IMG/VR virus record: IMGVR_UViG_3300042451_001197
Span: 32,001-96,000 of that record
DNA from: a virus
Strand: one strand, 5' to 3'
DNA length: 64,000 nucleotides
Under the pieces are notes generated by a model. The model saw nothing but the letters and a program-made list of their open reading frames with translations. It searched no databases and was not told the origin of the DNA. A program made the position numbers and the translations under genes. Within the stretch, counting starts at the first letter, position 1, and each line of letters starts with the position of its first letter. Below, piece by piece: positions 39,688-45,763 of the stretch.

Positions 39688-39909
39688 ATGTTATTTTGTT
39701 TTAGGTGATTCTAAATTTTCCTTCAGCCAATTCCAAACCATTTTTCTATATTCCTCGTCCCAAGTTTCAAACTCTTCGGTGTGTTCACATACTCCGTCAG
39801 CTCCGTCAAATTCTTCGGTATGTTCGTATGCTCCGTCAGGACCTATTTGAAAGTCATCAGATATATATGGTGGTTCATCTTCCAATCCATCCATTAATGT
39901 TACATCCCA
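39329..39909. repeat. About 100-bp direct repeat (39329-39432 and 39806-39909) plus a short internal duplication
   Basis: TCAAATTCTTCGGTATGTTCGTATGCTCCGTCAGGACCTATTTGAAAGTC...AATCCATCCATTAATGTTACATCCCA twice. Confidence 0.9.
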
Positions 39910-40143
39910 ATCAGATAGGTCATCAGAATAAGTTTCGTTGTAGTATTCTTCACCCTTTTTAAGTACTTCTTTTAGGTGATGTGTTTTTAATCCACTTCCG
40001 TGAACAACAGAATATATTACCTGTTCTTTCTCCATTTCTTTAGCTTGTTCAAAAGCCTTTGAACCTTCCTGAATTGTTGCTTCTTGGTTATCATTGAACC
40101 ATCTAAATAACCACTCAACCGCGGTTTGTTTTTTATTTTCCAT
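39691..40143 (-). CDS. QTAVEWL-family mosaic protein (start corrected)
   Basis: MENKKQTAVEWL...AKEMEKEQ...YYNETY plus shared block. Confidence 0.65.
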   Translation of the reverse strand: MENKKQTAVEWLFRWFNDNQEATIQEGSKAFEQAKEMEKEQVIYSVVHGSGLKTHHLKEVLKKGEEYYNETYSDDLSDWDVTLMDGLEDEPPYISDDFQIGPDGAYEHTEEFDGADGVCEHTEEFETWDEEYRKMVWNWLKENLESPKTK

Positions 40144-40360
40144 AAATTTCATTATAATAATTTTCAGCGTCTTTAGCTCCACCCCAATCTGAACATCCGT
40201 ATTTTACCGCACTACATATTTGTTCCTTTTCCTCTTCTAATAACTCAACCGCCTTGTCGATTGCTTCTCCAAAGCTAAGTGTTTTTTGTGGGTGTTTGAG
40301 TAACATTTCATCACCCCAAGATATTAGTTCTTGTAATGCTGTTCGTTTTTTATTTTCCAT
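40133..40360 (-). CDS. QTAVEWL-family paralogue (start corrected)
   Basis: MENKKRTALQEL...EKEQI...YYNEIYGK. Confidence 0.65.
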   Translation of the reverse strand: MENKKRTALQELISWGDEMLLKHPQKTLSFGEAIDKAVELLEEEKEQICSAVKYGCSDWGGAKDAENYYNEIYGK

Positions 40361-40586
40361 AAATTTTGTTATAATCTTCTTCAAAATCATTATCTGTTGG
40401 TGAATCATAACAACCGCATGAGTAGTCATCACCTCTATAAAAAAAATCTTTCATTTGTTTTTTTTCCATTTCTTTGGCTTTGATGGCGATATCTTCAGGT
40501 ATTCCAAAATCCAAATCATAGTTTTCGTCATTTAAACGACTAACTTCTCCGAGTAACCACTCAACTGCAGTTTGTTTCTTTTCCAT
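40350..40586 (-). CDS. QTAVEWL-family paralogue
   Basis: MEKKQTAVEWL...AKEMEKKQ...YNKIYGK. Confidence 0.65.
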   Translation of the reverse strand: MEKKQTAVEWLLGEVSRLNDENYDLDFGIPEDIAIKAKEMEKKQMKDFFYRGDDYSCGCYDSPTDNDFEEDYNKIYGK

Positions 40587-43142: not shown

Positions 43143-43943
43143 TTAGATGGGTAAATTTACCTTTGATAGTAGTTGGTTTGAAACGTGAGTGTAAATTTCG
43201 GTAGTTTTTACATTTGAGTGACCTAATATTTTCTGAATTACTCTTATATCAGTACCATTCTCTAAAAGATTTGTTGCAAAACTATGTCTTAATTGATGTA
43301 TGTGATATTTTTCACCCAAATATTTTTTAACAATTTGATTACAACTACCAGAACTATATTGTAAACTATTTTGACCATTGAAAAGGTATTCTTTTGGTTG
43401 ACACTCTTTGAAGTATATTCTTAATAAGAATAAGATGTTCTGGGAAAGTGGAACTACTCTATCTTTTCTACCTTTAGCGTTTTTAATATGAATAATCATT
43501 CTTTTGGAATCGATATCTTCAATTTTAAGGTTAATTACTTCCGATACTCTTAATCCGACCGAATAAGTTAAAGATAATATCGTTTTATGTTTAAGATTGG
43601 TAATTTTAGATAATTGTTCTTTAATATACTCTCCATCAATAACCTGTGGTAACTTCTTCTCAGATTTAGGTCGTTTGAATGAAACTTTATCATACTTCTT
43701 ATTTAACCCAAATTTGTAAAGAAAACGGATTGCGTTTATTACTTGGTTTTGTTGAGATACTGAGGTGAATTTATAATTATCCAGATACGTTTGAAAATCT
43801 TTGGAATTGCAGTGTGTTATTTGTTTAGCGCCTAACGTATTTAAGAAATTTCGTATATGCGAAAGATAATTATCGCGAGTTCTTGGTGAATAGTTTAAAT
43901 ATATAAACTTTTCTTCACAAATCTTTATAATTTTAGTGTTCAA
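43143..43943 (-). CDS. Tyrosine recombinase, IntI-like N-terminal SAM domain, no IntI-specific insertion
   Basis: YS.RT...Y, S.SQQNQ.INAI.F, KKLP.V, YSVGLRVSE, KGRKDR, HQLRHSFAT, LGH....TTEIYTHV. Confidence 0.93.
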   Translation of the reverse strand: MNTKIIKICEEKFIYLNYSPRTRDNYLSHIRNFLNTLGAKQITHCNSKDFQTYLDNYKFTSVSQQNQVINAIRFLYKFGLNKKYDKVSFKRPKSEKKLPQVIDGEYIKEQLSKITNLKHKTILSLTYSVGLRVSEVINLKIEDIDSKRMIIHIKNAKGRKDRVVPLSQNILFLLRIYFKECQPKEYLFNGQNSLQYSSGSCNQIVKKYLGEKYHIHQLRHSFATNLLENGTDIRVIQKILGHSNVKTTEIYTHVSNQLLSKVNLPI

Positions 43944-44087
43944 GTTATTTATTTTTAATCAGTTAGACTATACTTGTTTATATATAATAGTTATAAGTAA
44001 TTTTTGAAACCGAAGACCCGAACTTCTTTAGTACTCCCTAATCACACCCGAAAAGAGTAGTGATTCCCATAAGTTTCAAAAACATAC

Positions 44088-44141
44088 TTATAACAAATGA
44101 TAAACAACATTAAAACGATTGTTTATCATCAGTCGTTAGGT
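44088..44141. repeat. attC-like site 1
   Basis: TTATAAC-AA-ATGATAAACAA..TTGTTTATCAT-CAGTC-GTTAGGT. Confidence 0.8.
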
Positions 44142-44150
44142 TCAATTAAA

Positions 44151-44372
44151 TTATTGTTTTGAGTTTAATATATTTTTCTCAACCCATTCAGAAGAAAAAT
44201 ATGGTAGTCCTTCTTCATTGATAACTCTATTCAAATCTTCAACAAGTTCCTTTCTTTGTGTCATTTGTTTCAATTTTTCTTCTTCATTAAATTTCATACA
44301 CTCTCTATCAAACTTAATACGTTCTTTCATATCAAGATTTTTATACATTTCAAATAATTCTTTCATTTTCAT
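44151..44372 (-). CDS. Cassette-borne hypothetical protein (frame open to 44453 inside attC-like site 2)
   Basis: MKMKELFEMY; lies within cassette body 2. Confidence 0.6.
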   Translation of the reverse strand: MKMKELFEMYKNLDMKERIKFDRECMKFNEEEKLKQMTQRKELVEDLNRVINEEGLPYFSSEWVEKNILNSKQ

Positions 44373-44411
44373 ATTTATATTTTTTAATTTGTAAAACAAT
44401 AATTTAACTAA

Positions 44412-44465
44412 ACCTAACAAATGATAAACAACATTAAAACGATTGTTTATCATCGGACGTTAGTG
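44412..44465. repeat. attC-like site 2 (near-identical to site 1)
   Basis: ACCTAAC-AA-ATGATAAACAA..TTGTTTATCAT-CGGAC-GTTAGTG. Confidence 0.8.
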
Positions 44466-44672
44466 GCAATTTGAGCCAAATAAATAATTATATTCGTTCA
44501 TATACCATTTTTCATCTATTGAATGTTGTATAAATCTAAGAGGATGTGTGCTTTTTAAGCATTTATTGCGTATTTTAGCTAATGCCTCTGAATGAGATAA
44601 ACTGCCACTAACAACAGATATAATCAATGGTGAGAATATCTTTTCATCTAACCTTTGTTCTTTATTCATCAT
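44460..44672 (-). CDS. Cassette ORF starting in attC-like site 3 loop, stop codon within TAAC core
   Basis: LIISVVSGS is the translated arm and core; ends CAC-TAA-C. Confidence 0.6.
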   Translation of the reverse strand: MMNKEQRLDEKIFSPLIISVVSGSLSHSEALAKIRNKCLKSTHPLRFIQHSIDEKWYMNEYNYLFGSNCH

Positions 44673-44730
44673 TTTTTGTTTTTAAATTTGTTCCTTTTAC
44701 ACCACTGATTATATCTGCAAACCGTTAGTG
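44606..44730. repeat. attC-like site 3 (long loop)
   Basis: CACTAAC-AA-CAGATATAATCA.TGGTG ... CACCA.TGATTATATCTG-CAAACC-GTTAGTG. Confidence 0.75.
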
Positions 44731-44735
44731 ATAAT

Positions 44736-44978
44736 TTATTTCTTAACAATCTTATATCCAAATTTGTCCAAAAGTTCTCTTATTTCCTTAGGTATTTCTC
44801 TTTCCATACCACCACAACTCATTCTGGTTCCAAGTGGTATTCTTTCCCAAATTTTCATAAGTAGTGTTAAAGTTTCCTTCGGAGATAAACTATCACTAAC
44901 ATCAGATATATTCAAGTTTTCTGATTCAGTTAGTTTCTGTTTGAAAGTGTCTATGTATTTTCTCATTTCGTGTTTCAT
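44736..44978 (-). CDS. Cassette ORF with LTE leader encoded in attC-like site 4 loop
   Basis: MKHEMRKYIDTFKQKLTE-SENLNISDVSDS; TATTTATA motif inside the loop. Confidence 0.65.
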   Translation of the reverse strand: MKHEMRKYIDTFKQKLTESENLNISDVSDSLSPKETLTLLMKIWERIPLGTRMSCGGMEREIPKEIRELLDKFGYKIVKK

Positions 44979-45035
44979 AATTTTGTTTTATATATAAATA
45001 TCAGAAAACCTAAATATATCTGAGTACCGTTATAT
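44894..45035. repeat. attC-like site 4 (long loop)
   Basis: CACTAAC-AT-CAGATATATT...GTTTTCTGAT ... ATCAGAAAAC...AATATATCTG-AGTACC-GTTATAT. Confidence 0.75.
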
Positions 45036-45707
45036 ATCAAAAACATTTCCATTACTACATAATTTACCAAACTTACCATCTGTTACCACACTACCATTAC
45101 TGAATATGGTATCGATATTCGGTATCTTTCTAACACCAGAGTTTATAATGTCCTCACAATTGTGTATGTGTCCGAATAAAGATAACTTTGGTTTAATCTC
45201 AAAGATACGTTTTCTTAAAGATGTGTCACCACAAAACTCCAATTCGTTTTCTCTATTATAAGATAAATCTAAGATTGTGCTTGGTGGTCCGTGAGTGATA
45301 ACAATATCGGTATCAGTTGGAATCTGTTTCCAAACTTCGTGGGTTTTCATTCTGTTTTTATTGAATGCCCATCCTATACCAAATGTTGGTGTTATCGGAG
45401 AACCCCATATCTTAATTCCTTCAATCTCAACGGACTCGTTCTCCAAGTAAATTATTCCACCATCATTGAAATTATCTTTTGTGATATATTTTCTTTCTAT
45501 TGATGTGTCGTGATTTCCCGAAACAAAAATCTTATACTTTATAGGTAAAGATTTATACCACTCAATAAAGTTTTCCATCTCAATCTTGTTTGGTAAAGGT
45601 TCTCTTGGGTTGGTTGCGTCTCCACTATGGATGACCATATCAATATTCTCGGGTATTGTTAATAACCCGTGAAAGGTGTGAGTGTCAGATATGTGCCAGA
45701 TTTTCAT
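45030..45707 (-). CDS. Calcineurin-like metallophosphoesterase (paralogue of 8106; start corrected)
   Basis: ISDTH, HSGD, SGNHD, ITHGPP, FGHIH; stop codon lies in the TAAC core of attC-like site 4. Confidence 0.92.
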   Translation of the reverse strand: MKIWHISDTHTFHGLLTIPENIDMVIHSGDATNPREPLPNKIEMENFIEWYKSLPIKYKIFVSGNHDTSIERKYITKDNFNDGGIIYLENESVEIEGIKIWGSPITPTFGIGWAFNKNRMKTHEVWKQIPTDTDIVITHGPPSTILDLSYNRENELEFCGDTSLRKRIFEIKPKLSLFGHIHNCEDIINSGVRKIPNIDTIFSNGSVVTDGKFGKLCSNGNVFDI

Positions 45708-45763
45708 AATACAAAGATACGAAATTATTCTCAAATAACCAAAAAAAATGTATATTTATTAAT

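Follow-up and report, generated by a model that had tools for sequence, protein, structure and literature searches.

A phage-borne array of gene cassettes lies within the 64,000-nucleotide stretch of viral DNA analyzed here, which we call the window (bases 32001-96000 of the 106,819-bp IMG/VR record IMGVR_UViG_3300042451_001197). The array directly adjoins the gene for a tyrosine recombinase, and we think it probable that the two form an integron-like gene-cassette platform run by a tyrosine recombinase different from that of integrons. We document the anatomy of the array, its association with the recombinase, the rule of complementary cassette ends that it follows, the sharp boundaries of its units, and the gain and loss of cassettes in cultured relatives. 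The array of the window is a member of a large phage family of integron-like platforms with a Xer-like enzyme; it is not a canonical integron.

The record has a G+C content of 29%. We regard it as a fragment of a giant phage, because CheckV rates it as 36% complete. The complete genomes of its relatives measure 276-362 kb, one of them with terminal repeats. The stretch is matched in lake-water metagenomes of many studies. Judged by the relatives of the phage, its host is probably a member of the Bacteroidota.

Anatomy of the array

Four hairpin sites (TAACG…TGTTA) alternate with four cassette bodies directly upstream of the recombinase gene. The features of the region, all on the minus strand, are as follows.

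43143-43943 (-): tyrosine recombinase of 266 amino acids, Xer/IntI superfamily (Pfam PF00589 and SAM_4, alignment, tree)
43944-43993 (-): putative attI-like simple site with the recombinase leader, without a hairpin; core at 43990-43993; TAAC followed by TAT(N)ATATAT...AAGTA on the gene-sense strand
43990-44094 (-): cassette 1 body, 105 nt, no open reading frame (ORF), ends GTTATAAGTA and TACTTATAAC; hairpin with a 21-bp stem (z -3.9)
44091-44138 (-): hairpin site 1, 48 nt from core to core; on the plus strand TAAC, 2 nt, 11-bp stem, 11-nt loop, stem, 5 nt, GTTA
44135-44418 (-): cassette 2 body with an ORF at 44151-44372 (73 amino acids, no known family); ends complementary over 41 nt (83%)
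44415-44462 (-): hairpin site 2, second copy of the 48-nt class (grammar search, folding, stem finder)
44459-44612 (-): cassette 3 body, ends GTTAGTGGCA and TGCCACTAAC; ORF70 (44460-44672) starts inside site 3 and has its stop codon TAA in the core
44609-44727 (-): hairpin site 3, 119 nt; its loop contains the start codon and first ~20 codons of ORF70
44724-44900 (-): cassette 4 body, ends GTTAGTGATA and TATCACTAAC; ORF80 (44736-44978) starts inside site 4
44897-45032 (-): 136-nt hairpin site 4, closing the array on its distal side; the flanking phosphoesterase gene has a stop codon that overlaps the outer core of the site
45030-45734 (-): calcineurin-like metallophosphoesterase (Pfam PF00149, 7.5e-16), flanking gene outside the array

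The hairpin sites fall into a short and a long class. A first-pass annotation of the window had described four bodies, each with its own complementary ends, together with two near-identical short sites and two long hairpin sites, and all of these are present in the sequence. The short sites, compared as 57 nt (44091-44147 versus 44415-44471), are 91% identical. All four sites fold as hairpins better than shuffled sequences do (z -3.0 to -4.5), and the best folding is that of the gene-sense (minus) strand, at -18.0 kcal/mol (site 3) and -17.8 kcal/mol (z -4.5). The two stop codons that had been noted inside TAAC cores lie at 44460-44462 and 45030-45032. The grammar TAAC..GATA..TATC..GTTA occurs four times in the whole record, each time in the array. 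The Rfam scan found no family matching the cassette 1 body or the hairpin sites; otherwise, the Rfam and tRNA scans returned nothing informative.

A site family linked to the recombinase

Similar sites accompany related recombinases in many viruses. We compared 80 IMG/VR loci with homologues of the recombinase, mostly 50-85% identical to it and many of them on contigs of 250-460 kb, using a purpose-written finder that requires TAAC, a spacer, a stem of at least 9 bp, a loop, the return stem, a spacer, and GTTA. Across 81 sequences (the 80 loci and the record of the window), the finder returned 292 sites oriented like the recombinase and 16 oriented oppositely, and shuffled sequences gave 17. 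Sites lie upstream of the recombinase far more often than downstream (279 versus 8), with up to 11 sites per locus within a 6-kb flank. Homologous recombinases are thus regularly associated with hairpin arrays, at least one upstream site being present in 64 of the 80 loci.

The sites share an extended core and a fold. Among 217 unique sites, the core reads TAACG in 211 and TGTTA in all 217, with spacers of 5-6 nt at the 5′ side and 2 nt at the 3′ side, and site lengths range from 48 to 252 nt. Every stem position shows 3-4 types of Watson-Crick pair, and 96-100% of cells are paired, a percentage that is weak and partly circular evidence because the finder itself requires pairing. On the gene-sense strand, G.T pairs number 399 against 129 A.C, which argues that the fold of this one strand is conserved by selection.

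The 48-nt class is a very abundant community repeat. It is found in about 40 related loci and, in complete genomes of 276-362 kb, is restricted to arrays. Its abundance is evident from four lake metagenomes, where the bins that contain it (window 44004-44170 and 44338-44504) reach a summed contig depth of 69-1834 versus ~2-17 away from sites, or 25-200 times the depth of the flanks. Hairpin-ended small units at such depth might also be expected if the units were miniature transposable elements moved by an enzyme encoded elsewhere (e.g., an IS200/IS605-type HUH transposase), with the recombinase as a bystander. Arrays without a recombinase, which exist among the relatives as they do among clusters of attC sites lacking integrases (CALINs), would fit this explanation too. 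We nevertheless consider it very improbable, since sites occur only in co-oriented arrays, most of which terminate either at the recombinase or at a remnant of its 5′ part with attI, and since no isolated copies were found elsewhere when genomes were searched for the 48-nt pattern and the record of the window for the grammar.

The recombinase is distinct from IntI in sequence and phylogeny

The recombinase lacks the features that define an IntI. Its ORF (43143-43943, minus strand) matches the Pfam family Phage_integrase (PF00589) at 1.3e-38, and the catalytic residues R, K, H-x-x-R, H, and Y are all present in the alignment. The best NCBIfam model is the XerA-type NF040815, at 199 bits (cut-off 220). 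The IntI model TIGR02249 gives 169 bits (cut-off 265) in two pieces that leave model positions 181-259 unmatched, and the XerC and XerD models give 163 bits each (cut-offs 335 and 330); with TIGR02249, the eight true IntIs that the genome scan also recovered reach 374-424 bits. By sequence, the best relative in the PDB is XerA (4a8e, 6e-38), and IntI4 (2a3v) is matched in two pieces, with the break at query 171/214 versus chain 174/265. When aligned with the eight IntIs, the recombinase is seen to lack two IntI-specific insertions (~32 and ~12 amino acids), as XerC and XerD do. The first-pass annotation had proposed that the IntI insertion is absent, and the IntI model, the 2a3v match, and this alignment agree. 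In VchIntIA (PDB 2a3v), the insertion contacts the extrahelical bases of the folded attC.

The phage enzymes form a clade separate from the IntI clade. In a maximum-likelihood tree of 51 sequences, in which relatives of the query are over-represented and archaeal XerA is left out, the phage enzymes and some Bacteroidota chromosomal homologues group together (97/92). This clade stands beside that of the IntIs (100/99), a pairing that is weakly supported (86/69), and both are apart from the XerC and XerD of E. coli (95/89). Judged by its sequence, the recombinase is outside IntI, and is either Xer-like or sister to IntI. Either is a better name than “IntI-like”, the label which had been given to it at first. 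Metagenomes contain thousands of close homologues of the enzyme.

Cassette ends are complementary to each other

In integron arrays, the bases past the core of a site belong to two cassettes, so that the ends of one cassette are mutually complementary and the flanks of one site are not. We observe the same in the phage arrays. The 8 nt past GTTA, compared with the reverse complement of the 8 nt ahead of the next TAAC, match at a mean of 5.6 of 8 positions (6.2 for bodies of at most 450 nt); the corresponding values are 2.89 of 8 for the two flanks of one site and 2.87 of 8 for random pairs. What varies is a stretch of five or six bases, with ATT to its left and AGT to its right. Cassette-specific complementary ends are the general rule, and this hallmark of integrons holds. 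The 7-mers at the cores fit the consensus RYYYAAC/GTTRRRY in part only.

Complementary ends are longer in some cassettes. In some bodies they extend to ~70 nt and enclose the ORF. One class, GTTATGTGTAGG...CTTACACATAAC, has inverted terminal arms of ~70 nt around differing ORFs (L035 4581-5192, L008 3002-3472, and L007 4269-5289), and looks like a conserved shell with exchangeable content.

Inverted repeats next to a tyrosine recombinase could also be sites of DNA inversion, as in a shufflon or invertase switch. Repeats of 9-10 bp bound each body, and the recombinase is weakly similar to tyrosine invertases (E 1e-11). We give this explanation almost no credence: body-to-body matches in related loci number 0 on the minus strand versus 557 on the plus strand, and the ORF is on one strand in 168 of 173 units. 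Furthermore, there is no common inversion site beyond the 4-5-nt core, because the repeat pentamers vary from body to body.

Variability has sharp boundaries

A simple, attI-like site beside the 5′ end of the recombinase gene forms a sharp boundary of variability. In about 30 related loci, the last cassette ends with xxxxxTAAC, which contains its own complementary pentamer, and is followed by the conserved, hairpin-less sequence TAT(N)ATATAT..., 47-60 nt ahead of the recombinase start. Loci L023 and L025, whose recombinase genes are 99.5% identical, share ~96% identity from exactly the junction TAAC onward and are unrelated before it. Eleven metagenome contigs contain an exact 26-mer across the junction, and eight different sequences immediately precede TAAC in them. 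At the other end of the array, contigs of related strains (assembled from four lake metagenome runs) diverge from the window at 45026-45028. The metallophosphoesterase gene just beyond this end was considered as a fixed neighbor of the array and rejected; it is not conserved beside the array in relatives.

Breakpoints within arrays also fall at cores. A cassette shared by two loci (L007 3547-3913 and L011 4723-5091) is 83% identical over 372 nt, and both ends of the match lie at TAAC, with unrelated DNA on either side. Three further mosaic cases terminate at the next TAAC.

Whole platforms appear to get truncated or duplicated. In L181, L182, L189, and L085 9058-9160 (the second array of G004), the attI sequence and only the first 20-25 codons of the recombinase precede more cassettes, so that relic platforms are embedded in arrays.

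Cultured phages carry relatives of the platform

The nearest isolates, by recombinase identity, are the flavobacterial phages Cellulophaga phage Ingeline (40%) and Polaribacter phage Freya (37%). Freya isolates differ by the presence or absence of single insertions: Freya_10 has a one-gene insertion of 307 nt relative to Freya_9, and Freya_6 has an insertion of 472 nt relative to Freya_5. Both sit exactly after ..CCAAC, ahead of the conserved integrase leader, and their flanks are 97.8-100% identical. This comparison concerns insertion points only, since the hairpin grammar of the Freya array could not be decoded. In the paper describing the Freya phages, the integrase is taken to indicate a temperate lifestyle and nothing more (PMC8776804).

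A site of this family, from Polaribacter phage P12002L, has been tested as a canonical attC. Qi et al. scanned phage genomes with IntegronFinder and HattCI in 2023, and reported CALINs and attCs in virulent phages; P12002L_attC1, a predicted attC, was the only tested phage site that IntI1 failed to recombine, and the second site of the same array was recombined by IntI1 (PMC9892861). These sites were treated as canonical integron attCs without an integrase, and no cognate phage recombinase, attI-like site, or family was described (PMC9892861). We find that P12002L_attC1 has the geometry of the 48-nt site of the window: TAAC, 5 nt, a stem of ~11 bp, the identical 11-nt loop TCGTTTTAATG, the return stem, 2 nt, and GTTA. 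It bounds a methyltransferase cassette with the complementary ends GTTAGGCAC...GTGCCTAAC. P12002L has no annotated integrase. It had been suggested, in the first-pass annotation, that standard finders would probably miss the system; this is so for the enzyme, which is under the cut-off of the IntI model, but not for one site of the family, which HattCI picked up in P12002L (PMC9892861). In the P12002L genome (L190; 29200-31300 and 38879-38936), sites of the family, among them a variant with a CAAC core, bound the methyltransferase genes gp35-gp38 and gp54. Our search of the literature found no description of a system of recombinase, attI, and hairpins of the kind present in the window.

The results for P12002L bear on whether the array could be a canonical integron, or a captured fragment (CALIN), with IntI-type sites from a bacterial host and a degenerate IntI. 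The cores do resemble the inverse core and core of attC (..YTAAC / GTTAR..), HattCI called one member of the family an attC, IntI1 recombined the second site of that array (PMC9892861), and the recombinase clade is placed beside IntI, if weakly (86/69). However, the recombinase scores 169 bits where the IntI cut-off is 265 and true IntIs reach 374-424, both IntI-specific insertions are absent, and the phage clade is apart from the IntI clade (97/92 and 100/99). The spacer is 5-6 nt rather than the 2 nt of attC, the ORFs are reversed, IntI1 did not recombine P12002L_attC1, and the system is conserved in a phage lineage rather than scattered. We therefore regard a canonical origin as highly unlikely.

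Cassettes carry hypervariable cargo

Cassette units are small and mostly encode a single direction of reading. Across 173 units of at most 1100 nt (median 376 nt), the longest ORF is on the sense strand in 168, with a median length of 83 amino acids. The ORFs run toward the recombinase, so the integron arrangement of transcription away from attI, driven by a common promoter Pc and with an attC 3′ of the ORF, is not the one found. The first-pass annotation had described cassette ORFs that are upstream of the recombinase and co-directional with it, and that description is accurate; the ORFs are reversed relative to those of integrons, but the topology of the array, when read by site polarity, is canonical (recombinase gene, attI, then cassette and hairpin).

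Hairpins and ORFs overlap. The stop codon coincides with the core in 29 cassettes, and 64 ORFs begin inside the preceding hairpin, mostly one of the long class. In these, the 3′ arm of the hairpin and the core encode a shared leader such as ...ENLNISDVS. Unrelated cassette proteins have an N-terminal leader in common (e.g., MK..K.F.E..ENLNISDVS), the final residues of which come from the 3′ arm and the core; it is seen in the window at 44897-44978 and 44609-44672 and in many long sites in L007-L076. The leader may simply follow from the structure of the DNA, or it may have a function, for instance in packaging or targeting.

The unit is most likely a hairpin together with the body that follows it in the direction of the ORFs, an assignment that we favor without regarding it as proven. 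The core motif cannot settle it, because the core is symmetric. Three arguments favor it: hairpins and bodies are equal in number, with the hairpin-less junction adjoining the recombinase; this recombinase-proximal junction is itself a breakpoint; and the cassette shared by L007 and L011 runs from the TAAC of the upstream hairpin to the next TAAC. If the unit is so composed, the plus strand of the window corresponds to the top strand of integrons. A unit made of a body and its downstream hairpin was rejected as the main model, since the hairpin-less junction is a breakpoint and bodies with identical ends carry different downstream hairpins.

Cassette content is hypervariable rather than fixed in composition and order among relatives, and genomes seldom share cassettes at the DNA level. 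Of 150 cassette ORFs, about 145 lack a Pfam family; the others include one N6/N4 DNA methyltransferase, one GNAT acetyltransferase, and a few domains of unknown function. In the IMG/VR search, ORF70 and ORF73, both in cassettes of the window, had no relatives, and ORF80 had a relative only for its hairpin-encoded N-terminal leader. The cassettes of the window can therefore not be traced in other contexts through these ORF bodies. The cargo, which comprises small ORFan proteins and occasional DNA methyltransferases, may serve host takeover or counter-defense.

Nothing homologous to the ORF-less body of cassette 1 (43990-44094), which is richer in G+C, is present in the 80 viral loci. The body may represent an empty cassette, or may act as a small RNA or as a site of protein binding. 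A copy is present in the metagenome contig L181 (~60-190), identical over the compared stretch and directly against the attI copy there. The copy has another upstream neighbor, and a hairpin with a differing 5′ arm.

Outside the array, three consecutive small ORFs that partly overlap lie at 39691-40586 (minus strand). Their products, which resemble tandem paralogues, start with MENKK.TA.EWL or MEKKQTAVEWL and have the ending ..YNE.YG(K).

Proposed mechanism

We propose that the recombinase encoded in the window would catalyze cassette movement by joining two kinds of site. One would be the simple, double-stranded attI-like site upstream of its own gene (core 43990-43993), and the other the folded, attC-like hairpin borne by each cassette, presumably as a single-stranded substrate. 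Read on the gene-sense strand, the predicted hairpin site consists of a variable pentamer, TAACG, an unpaired spacer of 5-6 nt, a stem of at least 11 bp, a loop of 11 to more than 100 nt, the return stem, a 2-nt spacer, TGTTA, and a variable pentamer. If strands were exchanged at the TAAC core or beside it, where cleavage may occur, a cassette would be excised as a circle, and the circle would be inserted at the attI-like site. The resulting array would have the order of recombinase gene, attI, and then repeats of body and hairpin, with genes that run toward the recombinase and often start in their own hairpin.

Integrons share much with this system, especially the sedentary chromosomal ones whose attC families are homogeneous, such as the Vibrio cholerae repeats (VCRs). 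Both have a tyrosine recombinase gene, a simple site, and a one-directional array of small units, mostly of one gene; in both, the site of each unit is an imperfect hairpin with an AAC/GTT core, the two ends of a cassette complement one another and not the neighboring half-site, and stop codons fall in the core. Homogeneous site families, hypervariable ORFan cargo, and integrase-less arrays are also common to the two. The phage system differs in its enzyme, which lacks the IntI insertion, scores under the IntI cut-off, and forms its own clade. It differs, too, in the unpaired spacer, which is longer (5-6 versus 2 nt) and lies, in the folded sense strand, on the 5′ arm next to the core, and in the ORFs, which are on the strand opposite to site polarity, point toward the recombinase, and in many cases start in the hairpin loop. 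Finally, the host of the array is a virus: giant phages of lake water and smaller phages of marine flavobacteria.

Xer recombinases are a second point of comparison. Like XerC, XerD, and archaeal XerA, the enzyme of the window is short and insertion-less, and it resembles XerA. Xer enzymes can act on a folded single strand, as with the attP of the CTX phage, and inverted sites flank the pdif modules of Acinetobacter plasmids. Unlike in Xer systems, however, the phage enzyme scores under the cut-offs for XerA, XerC, and XerD, its sites are hairpins with variable loops, and it is encoded beside a dedicated array. A dif-type site of 28 bp was not seen, though no search aimed at one was made.

Several observations weigh against the proposed mechanism. 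Neither an excised circle nor a junction between attI and a hairpin was seen in the lake runs, which consist of assembled contigs with joints of short sides (20-44 nt), and so neither show nor deny excision. We know of no precedent for hairpin recognition by an insertion-less enzyme such as that of the window. The Bacteroidota chromosomal homologues, 40-54% identical to it, have no arrays of the same grammar. Some joints lie off the cores: in the exchange between L039 and L068 (98.7% identity), the joint falls in the conserved leader, 11-33 nt past GTTA, and several bodies are common in their first ~100-190 nt yet stand behind different upstream hairpins. Homologous recombination between conserved modules therefore shuffles the array as well. 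The hairpins may also, or instead, act in RNA, since the favored strand is the mRNA-sense strand.

The main rival explanation builds on these last points. It holds that the hairpins are regulatory elements of a polycistronic transcript or of the DNA (terminators, processing sites, or translational control, like the promoter/stem-loop cassettes [PeSLs] of T4-type phages), that shuffling is by homologous recombination between these conserved repeats, and that the recombinase serves some other purpose, such as lysogeny or dimer resolution. It would explain the strand bias and some of the joints: the better-folding strand is mRNA-sense and rich in G.T (G.U) pairs, the ribosome-binding region and start codon lie within long hairpins, hairpin classes are kept between unrelated cassettes, and some mosaic joints are in conserved leaders rather than cores. 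PeSL-mediated shuffling is documented in T4-type phages, where repeated stem-loops between small ORFan genes likewise mark a hyperplastic region with gain, loss, and replacement of genes (PMC2839356, PMC4122927). PeSLs, though, are dispersed and act via homologous recombination, without a dedicated recombinase (PMC2839356, PMC4122927); the sites described here are confined to arrays by the recombinase, their cassettes have specific complementary ends, and insertions occur at a hairpin-less site.

We consider this explanation unlikely, though it deserves more weight than the other alternatives. It does not account for the cassette-specific complementary pentamers around each body, for breaks that fall at TAAC where the hairpins are unlike each other, for insertion at a site that lacks a hairpin and has only AAC in common with the insert, or for the restriction of sites to arrays next to the recombinase. 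A scan for intrinsic terminators was negative, and sigma-70-like promoters are about as frequent as in shuffled sequence (24 versus 20.1 +/- 5.4). In addition, the one-sided position of the sites and their orientation to the recombinase hold in 64 loci. The integron-like gene-capture reading, which was that of the first-pass annotation, is instead backed by the linkage of sites to the recombinase in 64 of 80 loci, the complementary ends, the attI-like boundary, the hypervariable content, and the non-IntI enzyme.

Implications for phages and integrons

The integron is regarded as an invention of bacteria that depends on a single enzyme family, IntI, and reading the folded attC is believed to require the extra domain of IntI. 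We lean, by a little, toward a broader claim: that the phage platforms represent a second, independent lineage of integron-type capture, viral in nature, in which an insertion-less Xer-like enzyme would join folded hairpins to a site at its own gene. Cassettes would bring their own expression signals, many of them with a leader encoded by the hairpin arm, and would constitute an exchangeable arsenal for counter-defense and takeover among Bacteroidota phages of lakes and seas. If this is true, the IntI-specific domain is not required for the chemistry of hairpin recombination.

The system is open to testing, because cultured Polaribacter phages (the Freya isolates and P12002L) carry relatives of it. 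If the mechanism holds, it would offer a compact, structure-specific recombination system for engineering, and would explain the hyperplastic ORFan regions of giant phages. The definition of the integron would then widen, and phages would gain a dedicated device for the acquisition of accessory genes.

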